The translations under genes and the position numbers were made by a program. A stretch of DNA of 60,685 nucleotides, the filler included, from Sphacelaria rigidula (taxonomy: Eukaryota), in the NCBI GenBank assembly GCA_964200075.2. It is 6 parts of 6 records of this genome, joined end to end, with 100 filler letters (N's around TTAATTAATTAA, not from the genome) between each part and the next. Parts side by side here need not be neighbours in the genome. Positions count along the whole stretch, not along the records: positions 50,657 to 60,685 come from CAXNAA020007294.1; 5 more parts are not named here. One strand, given 5' to 3'. The notes below the pieces were generated by a model that worked only from the letters and a program-made list of their open reading frames with translations, was not told where the DNA came from and ran no database searches. Positions 1 to 60,685 of this stretch are shown one piece after another (positions within the stretch are counted from its first letter, which is position 1; each line of letters starts with the position of its first letter).

Positions 1-456
1 GCCCATCTCCGCCGTGGCGTGCTCGGCGCAAAACTCGGCCTTTCTGCTGCCCGCTGCACCGTACGACGCCTGCGTGGAGCATCCTTCGTTGCCGCACCTT
101 TTGCTCCTAACGTTGACCATCTCCGCCCTGGCGTGCTCAGCGCAAAACTCGGCCTTTCTGTTGCCCGCTGCACCGTAAGAAGCATGCATGGAGCATCCTT
201 CGTTGCCGCACCTTTTGCTCCTAATGTTGATCATCTCTGCCCTGGCGTGCTCGGCGCAAAACTCGGCTTTTTTGCTGCCCGCCGCACCGTGCGACGGTTG
301 CTTGATGCATCCCTCAGTACCACATGGTATGCTACAAATGTTGACCATCCCCTCTCTGGCATGCTTAGCGCAGAATTCTGCCCTTTTCCCGCCTGCTATA
401 CCGTAAGATGCCCCCTGTTTGCACCTCTTGCCGACACATAATTGTCCAGCTATTCC
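1..456 (-). CDS. EsV-1-7 (Cys/His zinc-finger-like) repeat protein, partial exon running off the contig end
   Basis: Minus strand reads open from a CAG acceptor (459-457): GIAGQLCVGKRCKQGASYGIAGGKRAEFCAKHAREG, MVNICSIPCGTEGCIKQPSHGAAGSKKAEFCAEHARAE, MINIRSKRCGNEGCSMHASYGAAGNRKAEFCAEHARAE, MVNVRSKRCGNEGCSTQASYGAAGSRKAEFCAEHATAE. Period 114 bp (38 aa); motif C-x4-C-x16-C-x2-H. Confidence 0.85.
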
Positions 457-10032: not shown

Positions 10033-10132
10033 NNNNNNNNNNNNNNNNNNNNNNNNNNNNNNNNNNNNNNNNNNNNTTAATTAATTAANNNNNNNNNNNN
10101 NNNNNNNNNNNNNNNNNNNNNNNNNNNNNNNN
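10033..10132. other. Artificial contig linker
   Basis: 100 nt of N around TTAATTAATTAA (stop codons in all six frames). Confidence 0.97.
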
Positions 10133-20164: not shown

Positions 20165-20264
20165 NNNNNNNNNNNNNNNNNNNNNNNNNNNNNNNNNNNN
20201 NNNNNNNNTTAATTAATTAANNNNNNNNNNNNNNNNNNNNNNNNNNNNNNNNNNNNNNNNNNNN
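20165..20264. other. Artificial contig linker
   Basis: 100 nt N/TTAATTAATTAA/N. Confidence 0.97.
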
Positions 20265-21092
20265 GCCGCACCTCTTGTTCCTCACGTCCACCATTCCCGT
20301 TGTTGCGTGCTTGGAGCAGAAGTCCGCTTTCTTGCTCCCCGCCACACCATACGATGGATACGTGGAGCAGCCCTCGTGGCCGCACCTCTTGCTCACCACA
20401 CCCATCATTCCCGTCGTGGCATGCTTCAAACAGAACTCCGCTTTTTTGCTCCCCGCCACACCATACGACGGTTGAGTAAGACAGCCCTCGTAGCCGCACC
20501 CCTTGTTCCTCACATTCACCATTGCCCCCGTGGCATGCCCGGAGCAAAACTCCGCTTTCTTGCTCCCCGCCACACCATACGATGGATACGTGTAGCAGCC
20601 CTCGTAGCCGCACCTCTTGCTCCTCACATCTACCAATCCCGCCGTGGCATGCTTGGAGCAGAAGTCCGCTTTTTTGCTCCCCGCCACACCATACGATGGA
20701 TACGTGGAGCAGCCCTTGTAGCCACACCTCTTGCTCATCACATCCACCAATCCCGCGGTGGCATGTTTGGAGCAGAACTCCGCCTTTTTGCTCCCCGCCA
20801 CACCAAACAACGGCCGCGTGTAGCAGCCCTCGTAGCTGCACCTCTTGTTCCTCACGTCCACCATTCCCGTTGTCGCGTGCTTGGAGCAGAAGTCCGCTTT
20901 CTTGCTCCCCGCCACACCATACGACCGACGCGTGTAGCAGCCCTCGTAGCCGCACCTGTTGCTCCTCACATTCATCATTCCCGCCGTGGAATGCTTGGAG
21001 CAGAACTGCACATTTTCGCTCGTCGCTACACCATACGACGGATGCGTCGAGCAGCCCTTGTAGCCGCACGTCTTGTTCTTCACACCCACCAT
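20265..21092 (-). CDS. EsV-1-7 repeat protein: 7 complete 38-aa repeats plus a partial eighth, truncated by the contig end
   Basis: Consensus MVDVRxKRCGYEGCxTxPSYGVAGSKKA(D/E)FCSKHATxG; 114-bp period; open frame from the ATG at 21092. Confidence 0.9.
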
Positions 21093-21206
21093 TCCCGCTG
21101 TGGTATGTTGAGAGCAGAACTACGCATTTGTGTCCCCCGCTACACCGTACAACGGCCGCTTAGAGCAGCCCTCGTTGCCGCACTTCTGTTTCACCACATG
21201 TACGAT
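21093..21206 (-). pseudogene. Degenerate upstream EsV-1-7 repeat with an in-frame stop
   Basis: IVHVVKQKCGNEGCSKRPLYGVAGDTNA*FCSQHTTAG. TAG at 21122-21120, where most repeats have GAG or GAC. Confidence 0.8.
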
Positions 21207-22229
21207 CCTCGTCCTGGCGTGCTTGGAGTAGTTCCTTCCGTTGTTCGAACACTCACTGCTTACGATACCGCAAATACCGAAACGGCGGGAAATACTTCGT
21301 GAGGCATGGAGGGAAACTCATTTAACATATTTGCAGAGCGAATGACGTTGGTATCGCTGAATATACTCCACGGAGGAAAAGTAGCCGCCTGCATTCCACT
21401 CCGACCACACTTCATGGAAGCCGACGCCAAATATTATAGCACTAGTCGCAAGATAGCTCCGGCGAATGGTACGTGCTCTGAACTGTTGCAGTAGGACACT
21501 GAAAGCAAATGAAGCACTAGTATAACACAACGGAGGAGATAATCGTTACAGAAAATATGAGAAGCGCAGTACCAACGTTCAAGCACGCCCAGCTCTAACA
21601 GACATACATGCCACAATACGAAAGCCAGGGTTCAGAGGTCAGACAGCACAAGCCAGCTAGAAAGTGATATGCGGAGTCGAGAGCCAGACAACAATCTCGA
21701 CAGAGGAAGCGCTCACCACGCAGCACCGCGCACACAACATGCTTGGGTGTACATTGTACATTGGGGGGCGGTCAGTTGGTATGCTCAAGATCGTCCGCAA
21801 AAGCAGGTATTGTATCATGGCTTGGGAGTTGGGACACGGCGATGACGCGATAACTGGACAGCGGACGTGTATTTAGAATCGGCTCCTCATCTGGGTTGTA
21901 AGCTCCGTGAGGACAATGACGATATGAAACAAAGTTTGTCGAGGAAAGGACATTCGCATCACAACAGAAAATGATGTGTAGAGAGGTTTTGATCAAATCG
22001 GCTGTGACAAGACCGGAAATCGCCGAGCAGAAAGCTACAGAGGTGATATGTGCTATGAGGATCCTTTTGCGTCCTCTGCGAAAGTTTGCGCAATCTTAGA
22101 CTTGTACAGCGACGGTATCGTTGGTATGGATCCCTCCAGACCATTGAAGGAAATACTGTTGTGAAGGCCGGGACTGAAATAGAAACTAGGCAGTGGGTTC
22201 AAATCACGAGCACTACCACTACCACATGT

Positions 22230-25050
22230 GCCGTCATCCTTTCGATGCCCACTCGGTCTACATGGCACCATATGCCACGACAACGCCGAGACGCGACACA
22301 GCTCAAGCATCCTGGCGGGAGAAAAGATCAAGCACAAGCACGCCGGCGTGCGAAAGCATCTACGGATGCATGGTCATCAGCTGCTTGTTTTGCTTTTCCT
22401 GCTGGGCGTTTTTTGTTGCGAAAAATAGCAGCAGGGTTCAAAACATCGTCGGCAAACGTGTTGCAGCCAGGACAGCACACTAGGTGACGGCTGCACTTCC
22501 GAGATGCATTATCGGAACACAATCGGTGCATCGGCGGTTTTTTGTGTAAACAATGGTAGCAGCTGAGCGCCGGCGAGAAAAGGAACTATTTACTTCTCGC
22601 AACTTTATATTTTTCGAGCGTTTGTACGGAATCGACATGGATTCAGATCGTACGTGAGATAAGTGTTACTAGAGTGTGTATAGACAAGGCACCTGATGTA
22701 AATCGTCGGAAATAGTACGAAAGAGCTGCGCTTGATGTGCTGTGTGGCTGCATCTTGGCTGCGGCTGGTCTTCAAGAGTCGCTGTGGTGTACCTACACAT
22801 ACGTCGCCACATACATCGTGCTTGGCAGGGTATTACGTGAGGTCTGCGCTTGTATACTATTCTGGTCATGAATTCAAAGACAACGGTGAGCGTTCAGTGC
22901 AAGGTGGCGGATCCTGTGCCTACACGACTCACATATTTGTACATAGCGCCCTGTACACGACCCTGAAAAGGCTTCTCGACACTGTGTAAGTTGCGCGGGG
23001 TGGTTGAGCTCCACATGGTTTGAGAGCGACCCTTCACAGCTTTTCGTGTGGCCATATGCCTGTGAGAGTACATCGTAGAAACCCATCTCAAGAGAATAGT
23101 GGAGGCTGCTCTGGCTCGTGAGTCAAGCTTACGAACAATGATGGTGCAGATGTCCCTATATTATTATTAGTATAAATATGTTGTTATTACCATCATTTTA
23201 TTTATTAAAATGTGTGAATTGCGTAAATGTCTCCCCGTCCTATACTCTGATCAGTACAAGCGTGTCCTTAAATTTCATACGCATTTCAAGTCAACAATGA
23301 TCCTTCTCGGAGCACTTTTCACATACTCTGACTATGGAAGGAGAAAGTCGGCACACTTCTTCATCACCCCGCACAAGCAGGACGAACGATGATCAGTACC
23401 CAACAGTCAAGTGGTTTGTGTATCCAACGAATCTTGAATCCCGTATTGTGGAGTGTTATCGTCCCATCCATTCTGGACGCCGGTCTACACCTTTCAGTAT
23501 TATGGGCGAACCAGCCGGGGTCACACAGGAAGGAGGCCGACACAGGAGTTTTTGTTTGTTTGTTTTAGTACTTCATCTTCCCTGTGCGATACTTGCCGTT
23601 TTTATTATTTTTTCTTCGTCGACGATCAAGTCGAATTTTGTGCATCCACTACGTAGTCGCTCTCCACTGTTCGGCATTGTTCAAGAAAAAATCCCAGATC
23701 GCTCCAAGATTCGAACCCACAACCCAACCATCAGAAGGTTCCGAGGTTACTAGCTGAGCCACCGGGGCGACCAGCACTGGAGCCTACCGATACTACTCAC
23801 TGCATCCATGCACAGCAATCCAGAGTGTCTACCGAAAGAGGATAGTTCAAGCATTGCCCCACGTGAAGGACAGAGGGTTTTGAGTGCACTGTGCAGTAGC
23901 ACTACAGTATCTACAGAGTAACGGCTCCCTTGCGGGATTGCATGATCTGTGTACGGCGAGAGCACTGAAGGAGGAGAGACTACACAGTAGTAGCACTACA
24001 GTACAGTATTGCGGTGGTGAATACTTATAGAAGTAGATGTATAGGGCAAAAACAACTGCACACAAGAGTGACCCGCCCGAAAAACACCTGTTTCGTAGCG
24101 CCATAAAAACTTCAAGCCAGCTGTAGACTCCATTATATTAATACCACCGCACCATATAGGTAACTTGGATATATCAAATAAGACCTGAGTATAGCTTTCG
24201 TCAGATGCTGGTAAGATATGCAGCAAGCAAACACCAGTTGCGGCAGCGCACGTCGAAAACGAGCACTACGTTTTTAAGGGAGGATGGTTTTTCGAACCCA
24301 TTTTTGAGCAAACCGTAGAACCGGTTCCGATGGACAGCCCTGGACCGGACGGTTCAGAAGGTCCTTTAAAATTTGAATCAGCTTGCGCAATCTTGATATA
24401 TGGGTATTTCAAGAGGGTACCTCGGGTGAACGAGTACCTGATTGGGGCCAAGGGTTACATGAATATCGAGGGATGAGTAATTACCTAAAATATATGTTTG
24501 AGTTTTCTTATGCCTCTGCGTGACACCGTTATTGATACGTTTCGTTTCCAGCCGTTGTAATATTCCAACCAAAATTGATAGAGCTGTGAACTGGCAGCTT
24601 TGGCCGGTTGAGGTTACACTGGCCGCGCCAGCTGCCAGTACATACTTGCTGTTCCAGCTGTTCTTCCAGTTAACCGGCTGCGCCGATCAACTAGAGCCGA
24701 GTAACTGGGAAAAGATCGGCGGCGAGCGGCGAAGCCGTGAGTCCTAACGGACCCCGTGGCTGGTGAGGGAGCCTCGCGGGAGCGCCGCCGGAAGCGAGAA
24801 AAAGTACGGTATATGGCTGGTTTCCTCTTCAAAAATGTGGATAATGGTGAAAAATGTGACTCCTCACATTGAGGGGCCAAGAGACTTAGATGATGTTGAA
24901 ATCCCGTCTTCAAAGCGGTGAGCGATTCGAAGATCCTTCATCTGCAGTATGCAGCAGCAGAGACTCCGTGAGGAGCGGAGGGTGGGAACAAGGGAACCAA
25001 GGCTGGCAGCACTTGGGGATAAGCGCGCAAAAACAATTTCACAACCGGGT
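22230..25050 (+). mobile_element. Highly decayed hAT transposase relic, interrupted by a SINE
   Basis: Collinear motif remnants: BED-finger-like (G)TICHD...RKHLRMHGH (~22260-22380); TLTMEGE..QYPTVKWFVYP (~23320-23430); dimerisation-domain-like QYILAVPA...KVRYMAGFLFKN (~24630-24840). Many stops and frameshifts. Confidence 0.45.
23449..23772 (-). mobile_element. tRNA-derived SINE, family A
   Basis: Minus-strand head GGTCGCCCCGGTGGCTCAGCTAG (A box) ... GGGTTCGAATC (B box). Body shared with 31917-32277 and 58955-59299. Confidence 0.85.
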
Positions 25051-30295: not shown

Positions 30296-30395
30296 NNNNN
30301 NNNNNNNNNNNNNNNNNNNNNNNNNNNNNNNNNNNNNNNTTAATTAATTAANNNNNNNNNNNNNNNNNNNNNNNNNNNNNNNNNNNNNNNNNNNN
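30296..30395. other. Artificial contig linker
   Basis: 100 nt N/TTAATTAATTAA/N. Confidence 0.97.
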
Positions 30396-31916: not shown

Positions 31917-32277
31917 GTGTGTGTCTTGTGTTGTTGTCTCATCAATCCTGGGCGCCGGTCCACACCTTTCGGTATATGTGGGCGCACTAGCCGGGGTCAC
32001 ACAGGAGGAAGGTCAACACAGGAGCTTCTTTTTTTTCATTTGTTTTTAGTACCCTCACCTTCCTTCTGCGGTGCTTGCCTTTCTTTTTTATCGCGAAAGG
32101 GGTTCAGCAGACCCCTTCCCTCGTCGACCGTTAAGTCAAATATTGTGTACACACGACATAGTCGCTCTCTACTGTTGGGCACGGTGTGAGAATAAATCCC
32201 AGATCGCTCCGAGAGTCGAACCCACGACACAACCGTCATAAGGTTTCGAGATCACCAACTGAGCCACTGGGCCGACC
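31917..32277 (-). mobile_element. tRNA-derived SINE, family A
   Basis: Head GGTCGGCCCAGTGGCTCAGTTGG ... GGGTTCGACTC; body matches 23449-23772. Confidence 0.85.
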
Positions 32278-32765
32278 GGCAGAGTAGAGGGCAAAAGTAA
32301 GCTGTCGTACCCGTCACAAGTGTTTCAACGCCAACTTTCTATTCCCTCGTATATGCATACGCACAATTCGATACAAGCATGCCAAAATAGGTTGATACCA
32401 CACTGCATGTACAAAAAGCAACAGCCATGAGACAAGTTGCCCCAACCCTAGTCCCAGTCGCGTCCCCGAATAGGTGGATGGTCCAACCCGTACATCCCCG
32501 TCATCACAATACACGCCGCATATCAAAACACTCGTAGGTATAATTATACAGAGAAAATATCCAGGGCGGTAGGAAACTCAACCTCAGTTTTCTATACGAG
32601 CAAGGTCCGACACTGCCACAACATTCCATTCACCGGAACCGGGCTGTGTGGTCTCTCATCGTCCTGGGTGCTTCACTCCGCACAACGCCCACGCGATGTA
32701 CGAAAAAGGTGACACCTATCGCTGTCGCCCCCCCCCCCCCCCCCGCCCAAATGTCGAAAACATTG

Positions 32766-36264: not shown

Positions 36265-37372
36265 GATACCCACCCCCTCGCATACCGTAGCCACTCCAAA
36301 TCTGAGACTGCAGCACTGCAGCTTTTCCAGAGCCTCCGCAGTGACGGACCGGCCCTCACTCTCTCACTCTCTCAGTCCCTCCGTCCACATGCACATGCAC
36401 ATGTGATCAGTAGCCGCCACCCGAAGCGACAAGCACTCCGAGAACCACCTCCGGACACATGGCAACCATACCATATCATGCACGCTAGCCAACACGTACA
36501 CACTTTCCAGTATGAACAACCCCTAGGAAGGGTACTGGATGTGACTTATCGCCGCGCTGACCACTCCGATCGCCAAACTGCTATACTTGGCATCAGCATT
36601 ATATCCACACCGGGAGGAATGAATGTGGCAGAAATTGACGGGTTGGACTCTGACTCTCAACAACACAGTCCGGTATTCTCGTTTTCGTTCTCTGTAAAAC
36701 GTGAGGACGGAATTTGGAAAATGATCTCAATAAAAGTTATTGGGCTACGGAAGTGCTGACGTAGTAATGGATAACAACCAGCAAGCCCGGTACCGGGGGA
36801 GATATGGCTTAGTCTCTTGACAAAACGGACTCGTCACGGTGAAGGTGAAGGTGAAGGTGACGTGGGACACGACACATTTCATGTTCCGGCATAAACACCT
36901 TGGTGACGTCATTAACTCCCTCCCTGAAAAACTGCGATATGGATTATGACCCCGCTCCGATCCACTACGATATGGATAATGACTCTCGTACCCAACCTTA
37001 TTCTTGTGTGGGGAGGTGGGAGTCGAAAGAACAACACAAAAAAAGGACAGACGAAGGAGCAAGCCGCACACCTTGCACGGTTTGAGCTGGCCCCGCATTT
37101 TGCTAGGATTTATTTCAATAGCACAGTATGGCCGATTTATTCCGCCGGCACCTTTTCTTCGCCGTTTGCTGTATGCACACTCTCTCTCGGACCACAGTCG
37201 GTATGAGATACCTTGACTAACTACATTTGCAGGCGTGAAACCTTGGCAAGCTACGTACCCCAGAGTGCCATTGAAACCAACACCGTATACTTTCTCCTGG
37301 CCACTGCACAAAGCAAAAACCACAGAAGGATTCCGAGTTAATTCGTGTGCTGTCGATCCATTTCTTTCTCAC

Positions 37373-37459
37373 CTGGCTCATGCAAGTGTGGTTGGCCAGC
37401 ATGAGGCCGCTGACCTTGTGTGCCGTCTCCACGTACGGTGACTTCCGCGATAATGCCAC
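37373..37459 (-). CDS. TUBG: Gamma-tubulin exon
   Basis: CAG|...|[34 protein letters not shown], a gamma-tubulin signature segment. Confidence 0.97.
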
Positions 37460-37691
37460 CTGTCGCCAACGCACCAACACACAAAACAACACACCAGAAC
37501 AACCCGGAGGACGACAAACACCCAGTTCAAACAAGGCCGCCGTCGGGGAATCGCGACCAGACGATATCAGCGAGGTAGGACAAAGCCTAGATGCTGTTGG
37601 GTCCCAAAATTACAACAAGAGCACATCCACTTGGCAGGTCACAGGTGTGTATGGTCAGCACAACCATAATACACCTTAGCAACCTCAAACA

Positions 37692-40426: not shown

Positions 40427-40526
40427 NNNNNNNNNNNNNNNNNNNNNNNNNNNNNNNNNNNNNNNNNNNNTTAATTAATTAANNNNNNNNNNNNNNNNNN
40501 NNNNNNNNNNNNNNNNNNNNNNNNNN
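40427..40526. other. Artificial contig linker
   Basis: 100 nt N/TTAATTAATTAA/N. Confidence 0.97.
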
Positions 40527-46131: not shown

Positions 46132-46452
46132 AAGGCTAGTTTATCGGCGTCGGGCTACAAATGTCCATGGTTGACACAATTTTACAAGTAACGCTGCCCC
46201 TAATCCTAACCCCAACCCAACGCATACTGAGAACCCTCGCGTAAGGGTGGCACATATATTCCATGGGCAAAGTGCGGCCTTGGTAGACTCCAAATCGGCG
46301 CTTCTGGCGCCGATTTCAACAAAAACGCGTTCTGCGCCCGCGAGGAGCACACGGGACTGTCAGCCCTACCAAAATTCCGATTCTCGTTGTACACACTACA
46401 ATAAAGTGATCAACCATGAACATTTGTAGCCCAACGTCGGTGAACTCTACTG
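46132..46452. mobile_element. Non-autonomous TIR element, CAG..CTG family
   Basis: Left AAGGCTAGTTTATCGGCGTCGGGCTACAAATGTCCATGGTTGA vs right reverse complement CAGTAGAGTTCACCGACGTTGGGCTACAAATGTTCATGGTTGA. Right subterminal block shared with 56290-56430, ~59905-60000 and 60445-60600. Confidence 0.8.
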
Positions 46453-47059
46453 GCCCACGATATCGCTTGACCTTTGTCTTCGGGTGAAATAACTTGGATT
46501 CAGTGCGGTCTAGAAATTATTTGATTCCAGTGCGGTCAATAGTGCGCTCAACAGCTACTTGGCTTCATTGTGATCGCTATGCGCTTGCCTCGGCCCCTGC
46601 TGCGGTTGAGGTATCGCACTGCACTTTTCCCCCTTGGAATGTCCTCGCACTGTTCGTGACTAACTGTCGCCAATATTCATGGTGTTCACGGGGGTACCCA
46701 CCGGTGAAAGCTGGGGTATTATACCCTTCCTCTCCCGTGCTGAGCTCTTCGTACATTTGGAGAGCAGCAGCTCCTGACCTGCAATTGGTGGGGGCCCTTG
46801 TATCCGCCAGTCTCGCGCCGGCCATTCATGTTCTATTTTTACACCGGTTCAAACTCCTTCGTATCTTCGTGGATGGTGACGAATGTCAGCGGTTTCATAT
46901 GCTGTACCCTGCATACTTGACTCCGACGTCTTCAGAGCAAATACAGCTCCCAACGAGTGTGACTGATCGTGAGAACGAAGTGGCTTAACCCGCACGTGCG
47001 AGGGAAACACAGTATGTAGATTTCGCCTCCTCAAAGCAGCTAAGTTTCTTCGGCGGAGA

Positions 47060-49505
47060 GGGGGGGGATACTTATTTGTTGCTTGCCTTAGTCGTCTGAC
47101 CATTGACCACGCATCCCTTTCGAGACGGAGCACCGTTCCTACTCCTAATAGAGACACCTTCAGCATTCCGGCGCCCATTACGTTTTTTCCATACATTACG
47201 CAAAAACCTTTCACATATCTTATCCCCGTCCTGTTTCACCGTCTGTGGCCACCATGTATCTCCTAGTATAGCCATTGTTTTTTCGCTGCTGTCGAATGCA
47301 TCCAACGATTCCATCCCACCTTCGTTCACGTCCCGCATTTCCCCCTCTAGCACGTCTCGTTCCTCCTTGTGTAGTTCACATTCTGCCACAATATGACTTC
47401 TGCTCTATGTTTCTTTGCCACAGAGGCAGTTCTGTGCATCTACTTCCCTGTCCTTTCGACTACTGGTATATCTCTTTCTTCTTTCTGGCAGGTCCAGGTC
47501 CCCCACCCGGAATCGCAGTTTCAATTTTTTCGCCGCGTCCATGGAGCCATGCAGATATATGTTTTCATTCCGATCCCCTCCCTCAACCCCTCGTATATCT
47601 CCAGGTGTTCTTCCTCGTCTACCTTGCGTCTGAGCGCTCCTTTTTCCCTTATTTCTACCAAGCCTCTTATTTTTGTCTTGTACCCCGTGCCTTCACCCAT
47701 GGACGGTATCCCGTCTTGGTTTCCTCCTATCCTTCCATACTTTCTCGACTTCGTTATCCCACCTTATAGCATATCCTTTCGTACTTTCCTTCCATACAGC
47801 CTCATCAACTATTGTTGGCAATCTCTTTCCCCGCGTGTCCCTTACGCTATATTTCCATCTCAATTTCCTCATGTCTCTGTTTCAAGTGAGTACATTCCCA
47901 ACTCTGCTCTCAATGCTGTATTACTCGTCGTTTTCAAGCATCCAAGTATCTTTTTAGCTGCTGCCGTCTGTACTGCTTCTGACTTCTTCATCAACTTCAC
48001 GTTCCCCTCTCATACTTCTTCTGCATATTCCAGCTTTGGTACGATCACCTTCATCAGGACACATCTCTTAATCCTAGTGTCTAGGTGCGAATCTCTGAGG
48101 CTCACGTCCATCCTTCCTATATATGTCTTACCCTTTTCTATTACTTTATTCATGTGTTCATCCCAAGAACAGTGTTTTGAGATCTCTACGCCAAGGCATG
48201 TATACTGGTCTATGACCGGCAGTTCCTCTTTTCCCCACTTCCATTTGAGATATACCGGATTTTGCTTATCTTCGTTACAGACGAGTACCGCGCATTTGTT
48301 GACGTTCGCTGTCACTGTCCATTTCCTTGTGTATTCTTGCGCCCTTTCTGTTCTGTTTTTGCAATCCTTCTGGTGTTTCTGAAATCCCCCCAAAATCATC
48401 TGCGAACATCAATCCTGATATTACATCTTTACCCACCTTGACTCCTTGATTTGCTGCTTCGATTGCCATCAAGTCGTTGATGAATGCCTTGAACAAAGTG
48501 GGTGTTAGCGTACATCCTTGTGCAACTCCTTGTAAACTATCAAAATATTTCTATATTTCCCCGTCTAGCATCATGGCGCTTTTGGCACATTCTTTACCTT
48601 TCTCCACATCTTTCCTCTGATCCAGCTTCCCTCAACTTTTTCCGTAGCCCATTTCTCCATACTGTGTCATAAGCCCGTTGTCAACCCGGCGTCTTTCCTA
48701 CCCTAAATAATCTTACTTAGTGTGTACACATGGTCTACGCAACTACGGTTTGGTCTGAAACCTGCTTGTTCCTCGCTGTTTTTGTCGTCCTTTTCTAGCA
48801 TTTTTTCCTACTCCATCATTCAGAATTTTACAGAACGTTTCCCTACCGTGCTGAGCAGCGTGATCCCTCTAAAGTTACCTGGGTCATCCTTGTCTCCTTT
48901 TTTGAGAAGGTTGACGACCGCTCCTTCTCTCCACCTATTGGTGCGTACACGTTTTCTCAGATCCAGTTGAACAGCATAGCCATCATGGTAACATTTCTTC
49001 CCCCCCCCCCCCCCCCCCCCCCCCCCCACCCACCCCCATCCTCCTTCTCCCCCCCCCCCCCCCCTTTCTTTTTTTTTTTNNNNNNNNNNCACTCCTCCCT
49101 CCCGTTTTCTCACACCCCCTCCAACCCCAATACCCCACTTTTACTCTTTTCTCCCCCCCCCCCCCCCCCCCCATGCTTCAGAAATCCATTCACTATTTCG
49201 TCTGCCCCTGCTGCCTTCTTGTTCTTGGATTTAGCTACGCACTCCTTTACTTCATCTATGGTAAATTCTCTCTGCAATTATTTCGAGCCACTATCCTCCC
49301 GTACTTTGACGTCTCTACATTTGCTTCTGCCCACTCGTTGATTTTTTTTTATTCCTTGTCGAACTTCGTGTTAGTTTTTGGTGTTCCTAGTTTACCGTAG
49401 TGCTCGACTAGCACTTCTCTGTTCCCCTTCGAACTGCTGAACCATTTTACCGTTCTGTGCCCGTAGTGTGGCTATCCCGTTGTCTATCTTTCTCGCCCGG
49501 TTTCC
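47060..49505 (-). mobile_element. 5'-truncated, decayed non-LTR retrotransposon (LINE) reverse transcriptase region
   Basis: EFTIDEVKECVAKSKNKKAAGADEIVN; WREGAVVNLLKKGDKDDPGNFRGITLLSTVGK; QGCTLTPTLFKAFINDL; LMFADD; YTCLGVEI. The ORF end KASNK* is followed by a C-run. Confidence 0.92.
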
Positions 49506-50556: not shown

Positions 50557-50656
50557 NNNNNNNNNNNNNNNNNNNNNNNNNNNNNNNNNNNNNNNNNNNN
50601 TTAATTAATTAANNNNNNNNNNNNNNNNNNNNNNNNNNNNNNNNNNNNNNNNNNNN
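50557..50656. other. Artificial contig linker
   Basis: 100 nt N/TTAATTAATTAA/N. Confidence 0.97.
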
Positions 50657-53600
50657 CACCACATCCTGACGTACGTGCATCGAGGCGGAAGAGAACCGCG
50701 ACGAATAAGCCGGAGGTTGACAGCGTATGGGGAGCGTGGCATGAACAACAGCAGGCGGCGTTGCAGCATAGAAACGGCGTAAGGAAGGATCAGCTGATGA
50801 CAATACAATCACCCGAGGAAGTGCCGATGTCCGTATCCCCATGCAACTCAAGACGGGGTTCTACTTGGGGCTCACCGAGGGAGGTTTCCACGCCGTCGGG
50901 ACACCGTAGCAAGCGGCCAGGCTCACCATACGCCTCGCGACCAAATCGTGCAGGTGCGCCGGCGTCAAAATCGAAGCGGAAAAAGAAGAAGGCTACACGT
51001 GCTGCCACCACTGGTGTCGGCCACTGCAGAGTTGAAGGTGTCGGCAGCTCATCTTGCGCGGGTTCGCTCAGGCCGCGACTGAGGGCGGTTATCCAGCAGT
51101 GGAAAGCTACCATGTCGACAAGGTGCATACCGAATGGACCGACGCCGGGACCGAGCTATTAGTAGTTGCCCACGACGACCCTGATGCCGTGGGAATCATC
51201 AAGGCCCATGAACAGCGAGGGCGGACAGAAAAAATGCGAAAGGATCAGATGAAATTCCGTCCCACATCGACCAAGCCCCTGCCCCGCGGGTCAGGCTCCC
51301 AGAGCTGGCTGCGGGAAAACAGACGAGGAACTATCTGGCTAGCGGTGTATTCGAGCGAGTATTGGTCGAAAATCACTATGGACCCTTGATAGTGACGTAC
51401 GGTAGTGAAATACCGCCCGCCCGAAGCGGCTCCACGCCAACGCTCCCGGTGGAAGAAATGGCAGTGGTGTTGGCGGCGGTGGCGGCGGTGGCGGCGGCGG
51501 TGGAAGAAGCGGTGGTGGCGGTGGCGGCGGAAGAAGTGGCGGTGGCGGCGGCGGCGGAAGAAGAGACGCTGGCGACGGCGGCGGCGGTGTTATCGGGCGA
51601 AGCAGGGGCCGCGACACCGGCGGCGATTATGGCATACGCGGTGGGACGCGCCGATGCTCTTGGACGCACAGAGGGGGGTGGGGCCCGGCAGTGGGATGCG
51701 ACAGTGGTGATGGGCGAGCTGCCGGGGGGGGCGGTGGACACGGAAACGGCGGTAGAGGCGTCGAGTGCGGCTGGTTACGGCGATAGTGTTTCGATGGGGG
51801 CCAGCGGGTGCAATTCAGCGGCGGCATCGGTCGGGGGGGGGGGGGGGACGGCGGTGCCGCGGGTGGCGGCAGCCGCGGCCGGCGGAGGTGTCGATTGCAG
51901 CGATCTGGCAAGGGCGCCCCCGCGGACATATCTTGAGGTGGTGACAGGTAGGGGAACAGGTGAGGCGGCGGCGGCGCCGAGGAGGGCGCCACGCGCTGGT
52001 GTCGGCGCCGACGGGGGGGTCTGGACGACTCCACCTTCGTCTCTCGCGGCGTCATCAGAGAGCGGGAGCGTGAACACAGCGGCGGCAGTAGAATCATATT
52101 CACCACGTGCGGGGGGGGGGCACCGTTCAATTGGTGACTTACAACCCCATCTGTTGTGGTGGCGTGATGGCAAGGGGCCTGACCGGAGCATCCGTAGCGC
52201 AGTCGGACCCGGCATAGGTGAGGGGGAGATGTCCGCAGTGCACTTCATCATTCACTCCGGGACGTTATTTCAGAAGCGTTTGAAGAAATGGCTCGTGACT
52301 TCCACTGATACTGATCAGTGGGTACTTGTCCTGTTGGCCATGTCCTGCGGGCATATCGAGCCACAAGGCTCCAACGCGGTGCAGGTAACTGTCAAGCGCA
52401 TTGTGAACGGAGGCCCCCGGTACATACTGGTGAACAGGGTGTACCGCGCCATCGTGACTCTGATGGACGGGAGCGAAAGTGCGTGGCCTCCCGACGGACT
52501 GTATGATTGGCTGACGCATCCTGTAAAGGTGGCGCTGTTCGTTTTCACCTATCTATTGGCTGGCTGCGACTTCCTGCCGCGTGTATCCGGGATTCCCTTC
52601 CCCAAGATGTGGGAATTCGTTCTAAAGGCACTGAGGACGCCGAATCTGTTCACGAAAGCGATAGTGGTGATCGACGAGGGTAAGGCAAGGGTGGAGGTTC
52701 ACGAGGGGGTCAAGCTACTGGCCACGATCTTTTTCTTCAGGTACGAAAACGCATTTGCGCAAGTCGCGGCGGATCCTGGACATCTCTTCACCACGACCGG
52801 GCAGAATCTGGAGTCTTTCGTGGACAAGATTCGTCTGTGTATCACCATCGTACATGGGCACATGCCTTCCCGGTGCTGCCCGGACTTGGACGCCTGCCAG
52901 AATCATGTGGACAAGGCCGACGCAGTATTGGAATACTAGGGGGGGGCTTTGGAATGAGCATGCCCGCAGTGAACTTCAACGGGCGCGAACGGGGCGTTGA
53001 ACCAGAACAAAAGACTCACCACAAGGGTGGGGTAAAGGCCGCGAGCAGAGGAGCGGTGGAGCTTACATGGGACAACATAGTTGTATACTTGTTAAGCCAC
53101 ACGTATGTCGATACACGCGGGATTGTGCGAACCCTGAGATGCGCGTGTAAGCCGGGAAGGGCGGCGCAAAGACGTCACCGGTGCCGAGATTGCAGATGTT
53201 TGGGGAATTGTACGTTGAGGTGCGGTTGCCAGGGCCGCTGCTTTTTGCCGCCACCCCTGACCCAGCGGCCGACGCTACTGCTACAGGCGATTCCGCCGGA
53301 GGAAATGTCGATACGTCCCGCCGACATCATAAGAGGAGGGGCGGGCCCATGGCGAACCGTGGAAGGGGCGGGTCAGCGGCGTTGCGTGGCGGGGGGCAGG
53401 GGAGTGGAGCGAGGAAGGCCCCGGGGGCAGGTGTTGATAGTAGTCGTGGTGAGGAGTGCTGCCCACGAGATGGAGAAAGGATGGCGAGGGTAGCGGGAGG
53501 GAAATCGGATCCGGGACCAGATCCTAGTAGTCACAGTTGTTGCGACGGCGGTCTAGATGGTCCGCCAGAGGTCGAATCGAAGCATTCAGCCGGGATCTGG

Positions 53601-53693
53601 CTTGGAGATTCAGATTCCGAATGTAGCGACTCAGAGGAAGAGGATTCGGCATCGGAATCGGGCAAAGACGACGGCGACGAATTCGCGTTTTGA
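50657..53693 (+). pseudogene. Disrupted intronless ORF: XPG/FEN1/XRN-like 5'-nuclease + Cys-rich finger + acidic tail; C-terminal part of an Academ(X)-like transposon protein
   Basis: Collinear motifs LLVVAHDDPDAVGIIKAHEQRGR (51054-51389); GEGE, STDTD, LLAGCDFLP and CPDLDACQNHVDKADAVLEY* (51362-52939); CAC..CRDCRC..CTLRCGCQGRC (~53140-53242); D/E/S tail ending at 53693. Frameshifts near 51350, 52940 and ~53250; TAG at 52937. Confidence 0.7.
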
Positions 53694-56289
53694 TTGCACC
53701 CGTATCGAAAGTCGTAGACATGCTTCTTGCAGATGAGTTGCGTAGGTATATAAGTACCGTGGAACTTGTCTTCAGCGAACGGAAATTATAACCCGTGCGT
53801 AGGGTTGATGGGGACGTTTTAGAGTGCCTGGTGCAGTGCGCCCTTGTGTGCAGACGTCTACGGCGGATCGTCCGGCGACACCCTTGGGCGAATCGCCGGT
53901 TGTATGTCAAGATAACGCGTGATACTATAATAGTGGAACGAACAACTAATAAAGCGACAATGATGATGGAGACGTGGTGTTGCAGAGAACCTTATGGAAT
54001 ACTGGGCCACACGACCACCACACGGGCACGGACTCCAGTCGCGAGGCGGCGTTCATAGCGCTTTGCACAGCGGGCGAACCGCCACGAATATTTGGTGTGA
54101 TAACAACCGATCGTGAAAATTGAGGACAACGGTTTTCATTGACGATGATGAGTCGGTTTATTACAATCTTCATATATGTGGACCATGTTTTCTTTTAACA
54201 TGCCTGCATTCCTTCACGTACCGATAGCTATCACCAATTTCTGCATGCCATTCAAGATTGAAATCCCATAAACGAAGTTCTGGGGTCCGATGTGCATATG
54301 TTCTGTGGTCGTGGTGGGGGGGGGGCGGGTAGCGGGTACGGGGTAAAGATGGAACACGTAATCCATTCTCGATGTCGCAGAGCAGTGGTTCCAGGTGCTG
54401 CACGCTGGAGGAACATCAGATTATGTTTTCCGTCCCTAACCGTTAGGTATCGCCCACCAAACTTCGATGTGACTATGTGTCCTTCGAAGCAAACCCTCAA
54501 GCAGTTTCCGTGGTATCTCTCTTTTGTTTCCGACAGCTTACAGTATCACTGGACGACACAAGGAATCGGCAGACCGTGAGTGTTCTTTTTCTTCCATCTT
54601 TTTCATTTTTCTCCTTTTTTTTCTCTGACCACGAGCTGGAGTGTTGCAATCAGCTACGTAATGCGCGATCATCATATTTTTGTGTTGCTCGTGCTTGAGT
54701 TGGTGTATGTATTTGTTCGTCGTTATTTTGTTGTTGTTCTTGTTGATTGGTGGTGGTGGTGGTGGTGGTGGTGTTTTTTTGTTGGTTATCACTGCCCCCT
54801 TTCTTTCCTTGCTGAGGCTGTTCCTCCTGTCTTTTTCTGGTCCTTTCTTTCTTCTTTGTTCTTATTATTCTGTTCTTTTTCTGCTGCTCCTGACCACGGG
54901 CCGGATTGTAGCAAGCAGCTAATGTGAGATGATCGATCAATCAAGTGTGCATTTACACCTTGCGCGGCGATCCCGTAAGCACGCTTCATGCGCCGCCCCA
55001 GCGACAATGACAACCACATCTCTGGAACATCTTCCCCACTGGTGGGCAATGTTAATTGTTGTATGTATGCTTGCGGGAGAAGATATTCCCCACGCTGTAA
55101 ACCAAATGGACGCGGCGCAATTACTACCTGCTCAATGTGGATATCACATGTGACCCGATGGGTTTTCACGCCGCACCTCACATGTTATAACACCCGCCAC
55201 CGAGATGGCAATATCTCGACGCACACGGCAATTATCGACACAAATCGAAATGCTCTGTGTAGAAAACACGCGTACCTATCAGTCCTCCACTTCTTGGCAG
55301 CCAACGCCCTTGTCAAGAAATTGGAAGTTGGGGTGAAGTGAAGATCATCAACTTTAGATATTGCACTGTTTCGACACTCAATTGACGTCTGCCAGGGCTT
55401 GAGCGACAGCTGGTATCCAGTAGTACTTGCCTGTAGAGTTTCGGCTTCGTGACGTCCGTCAGCTGTGAGTAATCTTCTGATGCGTAAAGGACAGATATGT
55501 TAGAAAATGACTTTCTCGCTTGTACAAAAAAGCAGTACTTTTTAAAGGGATACCCACCGCTGGTTTGTGAGCTGTACTGGGTGAGATCGGGCCGGACTGG
55601 GATGAGAAGGTAGCTTCAGATACATACTACAGCCGTGTATTGCTTTAGTTGCTATATTACCTTCGTTACACTTCTCAGACTCCGTCGCGTCTTCATTTTG
55701 GGGATGGTGGTGGGAAACGTGACACTAACCCCCGGCGAAACACTGTACTACGCCTTGGTGTATTTTGGCTACAGGGTACAATAACTTACGGTAATAGAAA
55801 AGCTGGATCAGGGAAGAGTGGTGTGGTCACGTTAGATGAAGGAGACAAGAACAAAAGTGTAATAGTCAGTTACACGTGCACAGAAGGGACATGCCCCTAC
55901 GGACGGCTTGCATTGCGGGGCTTGGAAAACGTAGGGGGTGGGGTGGGGGGTATCCGCACGTCGGCTTGGTTTGTGTGGAGGCTGGTGCGATTGCGCTCAG
56001 TGCAATCTCCAGGTGGGAGCCAACGGTGGGATACGTGAGGAGTCACACTGTTTTTGAATGGGTCATTCATGAGGTTTCCCCCCCCCCCCCCCCCCCGGGC
56101 GGGGGGGGGGGGGGGGGGGAGAACAAAGTGTGACAAAATTCAAAAACAGATTGAAAACGATTTNNNNNNNGTGGGAAACGTGAGGAGTCACACTGTTTTT
56201 GAATGGGGCATTCATGAGGTTTCCCCCCCCCCCCCCTCCGGCCGTGGGTGGGGCGGGGTGGGAGTACAAAGTGTGACAAAATTCGAAAG

Positions 56290-56430
56290 CAGCTGCAAAA
56301 CGCGTTCTGCGCACGCGAGGAGCACACGAGACTGTCAGCTATACTAAAGATCCGATTCTCATTGTTCATACTCAAATCACGTAATATCAACCATGAATAT
56401 GTTTTAGCCAAATACTGGTAAACACTACCG
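56290..56430 (+). mobile_element. Right terminus of a CAG..CTG family element with no left end found nearby
   Basis: AAACGCGTTCTGCGCACGCGAGGAGCACACGAGACTGTCAGC..GATCCGATTCTC..TCAACCATGAATATG..GGTAAACACTACCG aligns with 46322-46452. Confidence 0.7.
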
Positions 56431-56869
56431 GGCAAATCACAACGCGTGTTACCCCTCGTATTTGCTATCTAAACTCACCCAAATAGCACATCAACCACAC
56501 CCTCCCTGTCCGAAAATAACCCCCAGATCTACCCGCACCCGCACCGACCGCCCACACCACCAAACGACACACAACCTGCCCCAACATGGATGAACACATC
56601 ACTCCCCCACCTTACCTCTTACCATTCAAGTTAGTTGACGTTGCCGGCCGTCTCTCCCGCGCTGACTTTGTCGAAACAAAACACGGTACCTTTACCAACC
56701 TGTCACCGTACCTTCCCGCGCCTCTTCTGTCGAATTCCAGTTGATTGGTGTGCACCTTACAAAATACTTTCGCACCTTACAAGATACTTTCGTTTCTTTT
56801 GTTATAACACAGTCGTTGGTTGTGCAATCAGAATAGTAGCGCCTAGGGAACTAAAACGCATGAGGATAG

Positions 56870-56929
56870 GAGGTTAGTACACCACTTGGGAGGGTGATCA
56901 TACTCCCAAGTGGTGAACTATCCTGACTG
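56870..56929. mobile_element. 60-bp TIR-only mini element
   Basis: AGGTTAGTACACCACTTGGGAG-(10 nt)-CTCCCAAGTGGTGAACTATCCT, flanked by the direct repeat GAGGATAG (56862-56869 and 56930-56937). Confidence 0.75.
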
Positions 56930-57101
56930 GAGGATAGCATCATGACTTTTCATTTTGTATCACACGTCTGTGTGAATTTTCCTGGGCCTCATCTTGCTTT
57001 TGTATCGATCTCGTACCTTACTTTTTGGGTAGTCAGTCCGTGACCACGGACAGCCTCTGCATCATATTTTTTTTACATGGGAGGAGGGGGGGAGGGAAGT
57101 C

Positions 57102-57790
57102 GGACAACGCATTTTATGAGCCCCGATTTCGACTAAATCGAGGAAGAAAAATCGAGGTGTCACGATCGTCATCGGGGGAAATCGTTTAGAAAAAAAACGA
57201 GGGGAAACCGTTTTCGAAAGAAATCGGGGAAATCGTTTCCGAAATAACCGGGGGAAATCGTTCCGAAATCGTGATTCCCCCCGATTTTTTAGGAGGTGGC
57301 ATACGTGCATTGACGTGCAGTGGTAGGGTACGAGGCGTTTGATATTTTTGCAACCGCAGCAGGAGACAGTCTTGTGACAGCGCAGGGCATGCCTGCCCGC
57401 GCCAGCTGCTGAGGCAGCTTCGGACGGAGTTGGACAAGCGGGTAATAAGTGTTGACGCTGTACCCTGCGGCGATGATGGTGATATTTCATGCTGCACTGC
57501 GCTGCCATATATGCATCACCATGACGAACGGACACTGTACTACAAGGATTATTCACCGCGTACCTGCTCTTTCTTCGGCTTCATGCACGAGTACGCGATA
57601 CCAAACCCATGCAGAAGATTACTGCCTGTGTACAGAACTATTTCACATATCTGTGGTACTGTACTGCAGTACGTCTGTACAATGAAGCGGTTTTACGATT
57701 TCGAGATCGCGACTTTGATTCCTCCCGATTTTGAAGAAATCGGGATCTCAAAAAAGTCGAGATAAGTTGCCATAAAAGATGATGATCCAT
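57102..57790. mobile_element. Possible non-autonomous DNA transposon with GAAATCG subterminal repeats
   Basis: Clusters of GGGAAATCG / CGATTT at 57120-57290 and 57690-57760; the TIR match is weak. Confidence 0.35.
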
Positions 57791-58954
57791 GAGCCCAAAA
57801 GTTAATACAATAGATGATGAGGACCGCGTCGTAGTTCAAAACATCTCAGGATCGACGTTTTTCAAAACCAACCGGGCCAGCACCTAAAGGGACCACGCTC
57901 CTGATCATAACCCCAACATTAACCCTGATAATCCTTACCCTAACCCTAACCATAGAAATGTGTAAACTCCGATGCGGTCCCCCAAGTACGCAGTCTCCCC
58001 ACGTATTACAGTAGGATCACAATCAGCACAAAAAATATCACCGCAGCAGAAGAACGACCACCGGAAGAATCGCAGAAAATGATTTCAGATCTACTGGAGT
58101 CGAGTCCCGCACATCCACCCAAACCCCCTGGAGCCGAATAACCGGGAAAACTCCCTGTTTCTTTTTTGTCCAGTTTTGGGCAAGGGGCAAAGATTAAAGA
58201 TTAAAGATTATGACACAAAGCCTTCATGCCATAACCTTCGGTTAGGCTGTAGGGGTCAGCGAACTCGTTGCATCATCGTTTTGATTTCTTCCACCGTAGT
58301 CCCACTTTTTGTTGACCAACAGCGACCTCGAGGACTCCGGTGAGCGTGTGGGACTAGCATAGCGCAATATTGAGTATAGATGCTGAGACAAGATAATCAC
58401 ATCATTCAGCATAACTCGGGAATGCTAGCTCAGATGCATGCAACACCCCTCCCGATTCGCGAACCCTCTCGAGACAACACAGCATTGTGAAGTGCTCCAG
58501 TACTGCTGATGAACCCATTGTCTCGTCTCCCCCTTCTTTACCAATAGTATACGTCCTCGGCCTCTTGATCAGTACTAAGCAGACCCGCGCGTGGCCTAAA
58601 AGGCAACCGCCAGCTGCGTGCGGTAGAACCAGAGTCTAGTAGAGTTGAGCTCAAGTCTTCAGTGAGTGACGCACTCGATGCGCTTTTACGGAGGCATGTC
58701 TGGTGTGTAGAACGAAAAATGCCATGCAATGAACTCCTCTGTCTCGGCGCAAGATGCAGAAATAGTCATGAGCCTGGAGAACCTTTGCAGTTCGAGATGA
58801 TGCCGACTGAGAGTCTCGCGCTTTCAGTACAAAACAGACAGTGCCTGACCTCACCGAGTGTCTTCAGCATAAAGGCATTGATGAACGACTGACCGATTGT
58901 TTGCTGATGCTGATGCTGATGCTGATCGCCGATGGATCACTGTACTGTACTGTT

Positions 58955-59299
58955 GTGTGTGTTGTCGTCCAGTCTATTCTGGACGCCGGTCGACACCTTT
59001 CGGTGTGGGGACACCCGACGGGGTCACACGTACAGGAGGAAGGTCAGCACAGGAGTTGTTTTTGTTCGTTCAAGTCTCCACCTCCCTTCTGTGGTGCTCG
59101 CGTTTGTGTTTTTATCGCGAGATATTCAGCACTCCCTTTCCCTCGTCGACCGTTGAGTCGAAATTTTGGCACCCACAATACGATCGCTCTCCATTGTTGG
59201 CCATTGTGTGAGAAAAAATCCCAGATCGCACCGAGATTCGAACCCGCGACCCAATCGCCAGAAGGTGTCGAAGTCACCAACTTAGCCACCGGTGCGACG
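58955..59299 (-). mobile_element. tRNA-derived SINE, family A
   Basis: Head GTCGCACCGGTGGCTAAGTTGG ... GGGTTCGAATC; body matches the other copies. Confidence 0.85.
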
Positions 59300-59742
59300 G
59301 GCATCTACTGTATGTGTGAATTGAGTATTGTCTGACAGGGTAGGGGCTAGGATGTTGTGCAGCTCTTGCCAGCAGTGCTCTCTGTCACCAGGGCAGGAGG
59401 AGAAAACAGAGAGAAGCTGTTAGGCTATTGGGACTATCGAAGAGAGTGAGGGACGGTGTAGGAGACAGGGACGGTGTAAGAGAGAGGGAGAGAGAGAGAG
59501 ATGAGCTTTTCCTGCATTTTCTTCACCATTCTGGTGGTGAATCTCAGTCAAGGAATCGTCCTGGGGTGTGTTATTGCACGTCATGATGGGAGAAATCGTT
59601 CAAGGGGGTGTCACCTCACATCACTGACGATACCTTCAATGTACCTGGTACAGTACAGTGCGTCCGATGTGACAATATTACTTGTTCCAAAACAAATTTC
59701 GATCTGTGCGGAAATCGGGAGAGGTCAGGTTGGGATTTTTTT

Positions 59743-60065
59743 CAGGTTAGTTCACCACTTGGGACGGGTGAGCAGCTCCGAAATTAATGATTTCCAGCAA
59801 CACTAATACTAATACTTACCGTAACCCCAACGAAAGCATGCCGAGAACCCTCGTGCAAGGGGGCTGCAGAGTGTCTCTTGGGCAAAGTGTGCGTTGTCAG
59901 ACCTCAAATCGGCGCTGTAGGCCCCGTTTAGACATGAACGCTTTCTGCGCACGGTAGTGGCACGCTAGGAACACAACCTCATCAAAGATCCGGATTTCGG
60001 GGTATAAACTAAAACCAAGGCGGACGAACTCGGAGCTACTTCGTCCCAAGTGGTGACCTACTCTG
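59743..60065. mobile_element. Non-autonomous TIR element, CAG..CTG family (323 bp)
   Basis: CAGGTTAGTTCACCACTTGGGACG ... CGTCCCAAGTGGTGACCTACTCTG. Flanks GATTTTTTT / GACTTTTCT suggest an 8-9-bp TSD. Confidence 0.8.
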
Positions 60066-60087
60066 GACTTTTCTTTTACGCACTTTG

Positions 60088-60361
60088 AACCCCCCCCGTT
60101 GCTCGGGACGAGTCCATCGTCTCAAGGGATCAACTAATCTCTCCCCGGTACACGCCTTGCATTTTGGTCTCGCGGATTGGGTCAGCACTCCCGCACTGCG
60201 CTTACTCACGTCGAACAAACTCAGTCGACTACTTTGTTTACTCACGTACTCACGCTTTCCACCGTGGAAATCACGTACTACGAAGAAAATACCCCACAAA
60301 TGGGGAATCGAACCCTCGTTCTCTTCACCCTAATGGCGGCCGCCGGACCACTACACCAACC
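60088..60361 (-). mobile_element. tRNA-derived SINE, family B
   Basis: Minus-strand head GGTTGGTGTAGTGG (A box) ... GGGTTCGATTCCC (B box). Its 3' body CTCGGGACGAGTCC..GGGATCA..TCCCCGGTACACGCCTTGCATT also occurs at ~45945-46050 and inverted at ~14960-15040. Confidence 0.7.
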
Positions 60362-60444
60362 ATTACACCAAGTAGTACTGGTTATTTTTTTTCCGCACAC
60401 GAATTTCCCCAATGTTGGCTACAGATCGAAGTTGAAGCTCCCCC

Positions 60445-60600
60445 CAGGAGAGCTAACCAGCGTTGTGCTACCCGATGTTCATGGTTGACATTACTTCGTT
60501 CGAATCTAAATATTGAGAATCGGATCTTTAGTGGGGCTGACAGTCCCGTGTAATCCTCGCGTATGCAGAACGCGTTTTCGTTCAATTAGGCGCTGATTTG
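60445..60600 (-). mobile_element. Partial CAG..CTG family element (right end, inverted)
   Basis: CAGGAGAGCTAACCAGCGTTGTGCTAC..ATGTTCATGGTTGA..GAGAATCGGATCTTT..GCTGACAGTCCCGTG..GCAGAACGCGTTTT. Confidence 0.75.
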
Positions 60601-60685
60601 CCGATCCGCCGGTTAACCCTTAGACCGCGAGGTTAGTCTTCTGTTGAATCGGCATCAATTTCAAGTGAGGAGAAGTATGCATGAT

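Follow-up and report, generated by a model that had tools for sequence, protein, structure and literature searches.

We analysed a window of 60,685 nucleotides (nt) of DNA from Sphacelaria rigidula and found that positions 50657-53693 hold a broken coding sequence for a predicted 5'-nuclease followed by a cysteine (Cys) cluster. This region is probably the decayed 3' part of a single large DNA-transposon gene, with a transposase-nuclease-Cys architecture like that of AcademX elements. The window is made of six pieces of ~10.03 kb, joined by N44-TTAATTAATTAA-N44 spacers. Since dispersed repeats recur among the pieces, a single genome is their probable source. Piece 6 spans 50657-60685, and the locus of interest begins exactly at its edge. 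Since the window was built from joined pieces, features at piece edges, the nuclease locus included, are cut artificially. An earlier note on this DNA had called 50657 a contig start; the position is a window-piece cut, and it says nothing about the source genome. The same note had named a probable brown alga as host, which agrees with the nearest relatives being Sphacelaria rigidula proteins and with the EsV-1-7 repeats at window positions 1-501.

To describe the locus, the features are given below in window coordinates.

50657-50993 (+): GC-rich stretch (GC 0.586, close to that of the element and distinct from the 3' flank) in an open frame at 50659-51159 (167 aa)
50994-51035 (+): possible degenerate remnant of the first acidic motif (relatives: A.xVDLPVSIHQG), suggested by a weak blastx match to P0107 and ending in an in-frame stop at 51033-51035
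51051-51314 (+): N-terminal nuclease part, frame A (hmmsearch E 1.6e-19; tblastn with P0003, E 4e-11)
51315-51400 (+): change from frame A to frame B near 51315 (TRNYLASG 51323-51346, LIVTYG 51386-51403)
51401-52130 (+): non-conserved low-complexity insert rich in Ala, Gly, Val and Glu, frame B (GC 0.71)
52131-52936 (+): nuclease core, frame B, then a helical region to AVLEY at 52922-52936 (hmmsearch E 1.1e-101)
52937-52947 (+): break from frame B to frame C, a TAG stop and then eight consecutive G (the tblastn alignment of P0001 changes frame at 52939-52948)
52942-53244 (+): frame C, with NFNGRERG (relatives: GxGWG) and the 9-Cys cluster at 53140-53241 (hmmsearch E 6e-13)
53245-53693 (+): Gly/Arg/Ser-rich part and acidic tail (IWLGDSDSE.. 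to DDGDEFAF, 53595-53690), with a change from frame C to frame D near 53245-53265
10033-10132, 20165-20264, 30296-30395, 40427-40526 and 50557-50656: N44-TTAATTAATTAA-N44 spacers

The coding sequence runs without introns over 50994/51051-53690 (+). Its GC content is 0.56-0.71 within 50657-53693; the 2.3 kb that follow have 0.50 and 0.48, and most of the window ~0.49. The Sphacelaria rigidula protein P0001 is colinear with 51920-53690 by tblastn, in three successive frames and without introns. The intron-free alignment and the GC above the flank bear out the earlier description of about 3 kb of intronless, GC-rich coding sequence. A profile built from the relatives matched the window frames B, A and C (hmmsearch, E 1.1e-101, 1.6e-19 and 6e-13). 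The profile matches to three frames, together with the colinear P0001 alignment, indicate that the locus is more than a chance reading frame.

Frame A (51036-51386) contains VVAHDD at 51162-51179 and IIKAHEQRGR at 51195-51224. Frame B (51212-52936, 575 codons) contains GIGEGE at 52211-52228, STDTD at 52301-52315, LLAGCDFLP at 52553-52579 and a CPDLDAC..AVLEY segment at 52877-52936. Thus, the FEN1/XPG/XRN-type acidic motifs reported before are at the place, in the order and on the strand described. Frame C starts at 52939 with NFNGRERG and goes on to a 34-residue stretch with 9 Cys; frame D is rich in Gly, Arg and Ser and ends in the acidic tail at 53690, before the stop at 53691-53693. Both the Cys cluster and the acidic tail had been described correctly. 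P0001 residues 504-628 match the frame D region in frame 3 (tblastn, E 3.9e-19).

The frame A to B transition was placed by eye from the alignment, where TRNYLASG and LIVTYG in frame B continue the relatives' ARDGIA..AFYGVE segment. The family profile aligns to frame B only from residue 274 on. Inside the preceding low-complexity insert, Tandem Repeats Finder found a 27-nt tandem repeat with 3.8 copies at 51482-51584. At the 5' end, positions 50994-51032 gave a weak, non-significant colinear blastx match to P0107 (E 0.19), with Arg in the Asp column. The stretch 50657-50993 had no significant family match (profile E at least 2, and likewise by blastx); it may be a poorly conserved linker of the polyprotein.

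This copy is broken by one in-frame stop (51033-51035) and three frame changes (~51315, 52937-52947 and ~53245-53265). The in-frame stop and the lost first acidic motif argue for real decay. Because of the stop, the three frame changes and the unrecognisable first acidic motif, the window copy cannot be active as sequenced. Judged from its sequence, the locus is a decayed, dead fragment copy.

Nuclease domain and Cys cluster

To read the fold, AlphaFold was given an alignment of 65 sequences for the full-length relative P0003, which has 710 aa and shares 45% identity with the window core. The P0003 model had a mean predicted local distance difference test (pLDDT) of 77.1 and a predicted template modelling (pTM) score of 0.78, with 376 residues at or above 90. 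Foldseek returned 42 PDB matches at E <= 0.001, and among the matches listed all were XRN1, XRN2/Rat1, EXO1 or flap endonucleases/FEN1. The best match was human XRN1 (E 4.9e-9), followed by C. elegans and fungal XRN2/Rat1 (~1e-6 to 1e-4), human EXO1 (5.1e-5), a mycobacterial flap endonuclease (6e-4) and human FEN1 (9e-4 to 4e-3). Since the identities were 10-15% and the template modelling (TM) scores 0.2-0.48, this is a superfamily-level match and not family membership. The model thus supports that the region encodes a predicted 5'-nuclease fold of the FEN1/XPG/XRN superfamily.

XRN/FEN nucleases have seven acidic metal-binding residues in the order D, D, E, E, D, D, D. We found seven acidic positions in the same order in the family, kept in 79-89% of the sequences covering them: D85 (8/9), D130 (12/15), E271 (29/33), E273 (26/32), D300 (35/40), D302 (34/41) and D388 (39/45). 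The window keeps six of the seven (VVAHD, GEGE, TDTD, GCDF), and the first is unrecognisable.

The nearest known system by structure is XRN1/XRN2 (Rat1), with E 4.9e-9 to 1e-4 over ~460-540 aligned columns. XRN hallmarks resemble the GEGE and (G/N)(C/D)DFLP-type motifs seen here. However, the identity to XRN was 11-15%, with TM-scores of 0.3-0.44 and no XRN_N Pfam match. The family also differs in its C-terminal Cys cluster, in the N-terminal transposase-like region that long forms add, and in being multi-copy and decayed. FEN1, EXO1 and XPG, which have metal-binding acidic clusters and then a helix-3-turn-helix Asp, share the superfamily fold; their matches were weaker than those of XRN, and no XPG_N or XPG_I match was found. 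In contrast to them, the algal family adds a ~200-residue helical region and the Cys cluster after the core. The earlier note had proposed an XPG nuclease with more XRN-like motifs. The superfamily fold is seen in the model of P0003 and the XRN leaning agrees with the fold ranking (XRN 4.9e-9 vs FEN1/EXO1 5e-5 to 1e-3), but the XPG label itself found no Pfam match. The top matches of sequence-profile searches against PDB, dihydrodipicolinate synthase and pacifastin, were rejected as chance matches (E at least 0.08).

The Cys cluster has the spacing CxC..C..CxC...C...CxC...C and aligns with the Cys clusters of the relatives. AlphaFold confidence across this stretch of P0003 was 51-79. The Atlas clusters nearest the nuclease-Cys module are animal hypothetical proteins. 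Two leads point to the Tesmin/TSO1-like CXC domain (PF03638), which is alike in Cys spacing: one near Atlas cluster (1,399 members) is automatically named Tesmin/TSO1-like CXC domain-containing, and one near mollusc cluster has PF03638 on 36% of its members. The difference is that the corresponding Pfam model, TCR, had no match at E <= 1 in the window Cys segment or in any of 65 relatives. The cluster is a putative CXC-like module that may bind zinc or DNA.

Relatives and possible Academ affinity

A word-indexed search found 12 proteins at E <= 0.001 among 996 candidates. The Sphacelaria rigidula relatives are 76% (P0001), 74% (P0002) and 66% identical to the window, and the other relatives 37-48%. 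An exhaustive profile search found 611 clusters (50% identity) at E <= 0.001, 291 at <= 1e-10 and 80 at <= 1e-30, mostly short fragments. All named family members are labelled 'unnamed protein product'. Three Sphacelaria paralogues and four from Ectocarpus sp. CCAP 1310/34 lie on different contigs, with within-genome identities of 84%, ~50% and 71% in Sphacelaria and 39-59% in Ectocarpus. These predicted proteins agree with the expectation of diverged, multi-copy relatives in brown algal genomes. The gene models of several relatives have internal deletions or duplications. Because the copies are diverged and multi-copy and the gene models are broken, we consider this an old repeat family and not a host gene. 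In bacterial and archaeal genomes, 90 pattern matches to the family came up, none of which was confirmed as a relative.

The gene model of P0008 (Sphacelaria rigidula) has, at residues ~390-594, ~200 family-unrelated residues past the acidic tail, and is probably the element fused with flanking sequence. This model shows that copies of the family get annotated as host proteins.

Longer relatives extend upstream of the nuclease. P0160 (EukProt) has 1,802 aa, and four Ectocarpus sp. CCAP 1310/34 proteins on four contigs have 769-1,080 aa; P0160 and three of the Ectocarpus proteins (~1,050 aa) contain the extension, which reaches ~1,000 residues in the longer relatives. Conserved among these long forms, the upstream region includes IIAGDEETY, RYPGDWH and GLDERQEVAN, motifs that we infer may supply the DDE triad of a transposase. 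P0160 residues 685-935 match the Pfam family DUF6589 (E 6.3e-5, 22.3 bits), and P0159 does so at E 0.043. In the Atlas, 29 of the 30 clusters nearest P0160 residues 440-1010 are in the DUF6589 set (score 0.93; Basidiomycota, Mollusca, Rotifera), and one further cluster, of Mucoromycota, is without a family. Looking for more remote long forms of the upstream region yielded no proteins beyond the four brown-algal/EukProt ones already described. The ~1,000 residues with a sub-threshold DUF6589 match and D..D..E-like motifs make an upstream transposase-like part plausible.

AcademX, a lineage of the Academ superfamily treated by Kapitonov and Jurka in 2010 and by Kojima in 2020, reportedly has transposase, nuclease and Cys cluster in one protein, as Kojima's 2020 work is said to describe. 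The relatives P0160 and P0158-P0161 are alike in having an upstream transposase-like part, a nuclease of the FEN/XPG superfamily and a Cys cluster. The Cys8 finger after the AcademX nuclease is matched here by 9 Cys in 34 residues, with putative metal binding. The algal family differs in that Pfam XPG models do not match it, its fold is nearest XRN and its host is a brown alga. The proposal of an Academ-like C-terminal half is partly supported, through the AcademX-like architecture of the relatives, and the family is a candidate rather than a proven member of Academ.

The literature describes Academ as a DDE superfamily (PMC9587614), with a helicase and target-site duplications (TSDs) of 9-10 bp in AcademH and a nuclease and TSDs of 3-4 bp in AcademX (PMC10045372). 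AcademH is reported from Basidiomycota, Ascomycota and Mucoromycota (PMC10799480), fungal Academ is most abundant in Pucciniomycotina, and the RNase-H-like domain of Academ had no Pfam counterpart in 2017 (PMC5751038). Our literature search for Academ with Ectocarpus, brown algae or stramenopiles gave only incidental hits, although Repbase may well hold such families, and no paper had both 'Academ' and 'XPG' as whole words. The main text of the Phaeoexplorer preprint contains no mention of Academ or DNA transposons.

Several observations weigh against the Academ-like transposon reading. Transposase, terminal inverted repeats (TIRs) and TSDs are not visible at the locus, where the sequence is cut at 50657 and the 5' end of the element lies outside the window. 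Self-comparison of the window found no second copy of 50657-53900, and the multi-copy status comes from predicted proteins rather than from aligned DNA copies with defined ends. The frame breaks at G or homopolymer runs could partly be assembly errors. The DUF6589 match of P0160 is below the Pfam cut-off (27 bits), the Pfam scan gave no DUF6589 match in P0161, P0158 or P0162, and the link from DUF6589 to the Academ transposase is drawn only from a similar taxon range. AlphaFold on the upstream 600 residues of P0160 (6 sequences) gave a pLDDT of 36.2 and all helices, leaving an RNase-H-like fold unsupported. Pfam on five window frames returned nothing relevant at E <= 1, with no XPG_N, XPG_I or XRN_N, and XPG_N, XPG_I, XRN_N and TCR matched 0/65 family members at the same threshold. 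Sequence-profile searches against PDB returned no nuclease and no XRN chain at E <= 10, so the nuclease call rests on one relative's predicted structure and on motif order. More broadly, Pfam on the 65 aligned members matched 18 families, each in a single member and none of them XPG, XRN or TCR, and the 12 relatives scanned individually had no Pfam family on the nuclease-Cys module.

The same architecture could belong to a transposon remnant outside Academ, with the DUF6589-like transposase in a separate or unassigned superfamily or near the KDZ/Zisupton type, and with the XRN-fold nuclease as an independent acquisition; we consider this unlikely, while giving it real weight. KDZ/Zisupton-type elements also carry CxC clusters, and KDZ transposons are those associated with TET/JBP genes. 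DUF6589 appeared in only one preprint in our literature search, which lists it in rust fungi beside Tet-like oxygenases and states no function. This explanation is further favoured by the lack of any analysis linking DUF6589 to Academ, by the absence of Pfam XPG matches among the 65 members together with a fold nearer XRN than XPG/FEN1, and by the incidental literature on Academ in these algae. However, P0160 had no match to any Pfam transposase model, KDZ included, at E <= 1. The Atlas clusters of DUF6589 (Basidiomycota, Mollusca, Rotifera, Mucoromycota) parallel the range of Academ (Pucciniomycotina, Mucoromycota and animals), so that this range and the rust fungus DUF6589 give circumstantial agreement with Academ, and the order of the three parts is the one reported for AcademX.

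It is improbable that the locus is a host gene or its pseudogene, either a divergent cellular XRN/FEN nuclease or a domesticated transposon-derived gene. The fold does match cellular XRN1, XRN2 and EXO1, the conserved acidic residues imply a protein under selection, at least in the past, and no TIRs or TSDs were seen in the window, where the sequence is cut at 50657. A host gene fits poorly with an XRN/EXO1 identity of only 10-15% and no XRN_N or XPG Pfam match, with several diverged copies per genome and broken gene models, and with 611 clusters that are mostly fragments. Nor does it fit the stop and three frame changes of the window copy, the fusion of relatives to a DUF6589-like region, or an intron-free sequence of a composition unlike the flank. 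An integrated giant virus (a phaeovirus or another nucleocytovirus) carrying an XRN-like nuclease is very improbable. Integrated phaeoviruses are known in brown algal genomes, an EsV-1-7 motif occurs elsewhere in the window, and Foldseek against viral models found XRN-like exonucleases (best E 1.3e-8; 34 matches at E <= 0.001). But these viral matches were no better than the cellular ones (identity 7-18%), none of the 50 viral matches listed came from a phaeovirus, the EsV-1-7 repeat is in a different piece from the nuclease locus, and the relatives are fused to a transposase-like region. A Pfam scan of the 80 open reading frames (ORFs) of at least 110 aa outside the locus gave no viral hallmark in the window and no match in piece 6. 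The scan left out 10 of 90 ORFs that overlap the locus; four of these were scanned separately, and six are antisense or alternative-frame. The check for a proviral context therefore found none in the window.

Other features of the window

The matches in the 80-ORF scan were confined to two pieces. In piece 1, an ORF at 1-501 (-) has four EsV-1-7 Cys-rich motifs (PF19114, E 1.7e-55) and a sub-threshold SBP match. The EsV-1-7 repeats form a family that has expanded in the genomes of brown algae themselves. A tandem array at 20265-21231 (piece 3), with a period of 114 nt, is 70-72% similar to 3-404. In piece 4, the ORF at 37220-37609 (-) matches the tubulin C-terminal domain (PF03953, E 4.3e-7) at residues 50-81 only, and probably represents a single exon of a tubulin gene of the host.

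A reverse transcriptase-like fragment with a FADD motif lies at 48275-48547 (-), with neighbouring ORFs at 48013-48408 (-), just before the end of piece 5. Its RVT_1 match (E 0.0036) is below the cut-off, and it is probably a decayed retrotransposon of the non-LTR (long terminal repeat) type.

The inverted-repeat scan of piece 6 found no TIR candidate tied to the nuclease ORF. Piece 6 holds an inverted repeat pair at 56297-56432 and 60443-60578 (136 nt, 76% complementary, 4,010 nt apart), with a related copy at 46322-46453 in piece 5; the pair may bound a different TIR element or simply be a dispersed repeat present twice. A dispersed repeat of ~350 nt is found at 58958-59303, 23453-23776 and 31927-32281 (pieces 6, 3 and 4) with 72-77% identity. 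The long C/G homopolymer runs at 56074-56124 and 56219-56263 form perfect short palindromes (e.g. 21 nt, 100% complementary) beside an N7 gap at 56164-56170. Adjoining this gap, 56026-56159 is duplicated at 56171-56302 (88%). Either an assembly artefact or a hotspot of simple sequence may account for the palindromes and the duplication.

Proposed mechanism and meaning

In intact relatives, one polyprotein would contain the DUF6589-like region (probably a DDE transposase), the 5'-nuclease, the CXC-like Cys cluster and the acidic tail. The family most likely works in the manner of AcademX, for which the same layout is reported. The DDE part would make the 3'-OH cuts and carry out strand transfer, leaving the fused 5'-nuclease to cut or resect complementary 5' strands or flaps, whether at the element's ends or in the gapped target. 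The Cys cluster may contribute DNA binding. Tn7 TnsA/TnsB offers a known case of a DDE transposase paired with another nuclease, of an unrelated kind, which takes care of the 5' strand. We use it as a mechanistic analogue only and claim no homology, as TnsA is a separate protein with a restriction-endonuclease fold. The Fanzor paper (PMC3627910) mentions accessory proteins of Tn7 along with further enzymes that transposons encode besides their transposase. The different TSD lengths of the helicase and nuclease lineages of Academ (PMC10045372) would fit with an accessory enzyme whose action is at the element ends or the target.

A bolder and tentative possibility is that the family represents an undescribed cut-and-paste lineage in brown algae and environmental eukaryotes, with one polyprotein that combines a DUF6589-type transposase, a 5'-3' nuclease of XRN rather than XPG type and a CXC-like zinc cluster. 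If true, an XRN-fold domain acting on DNA ends in transposition would be a new job for this fold. It could also give a function to Pfam DUF6589 and extend Academ-like elements to stramenopiles.

The locus itself, as a dead truncated repeat copy, carries little weight, and the family behind it is more useful. This family is large and unannotated, and its confidently predicted XRN/FEN-type nuclease fold is fused to a probable transposase in long forms. It appears to be a stramenopile, Pfam-invisible and XRN-leaning version of the transposase-nuclease-Cys architecture. Naming it would improve repeat and gene annotation in brown algae, where its copies are now predicted as host proteins, and would hint at what DUF6589 does. 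Furthermore, the family may serve as a test case for a second nuclease that aids a DDE transposase with the 5' strands.

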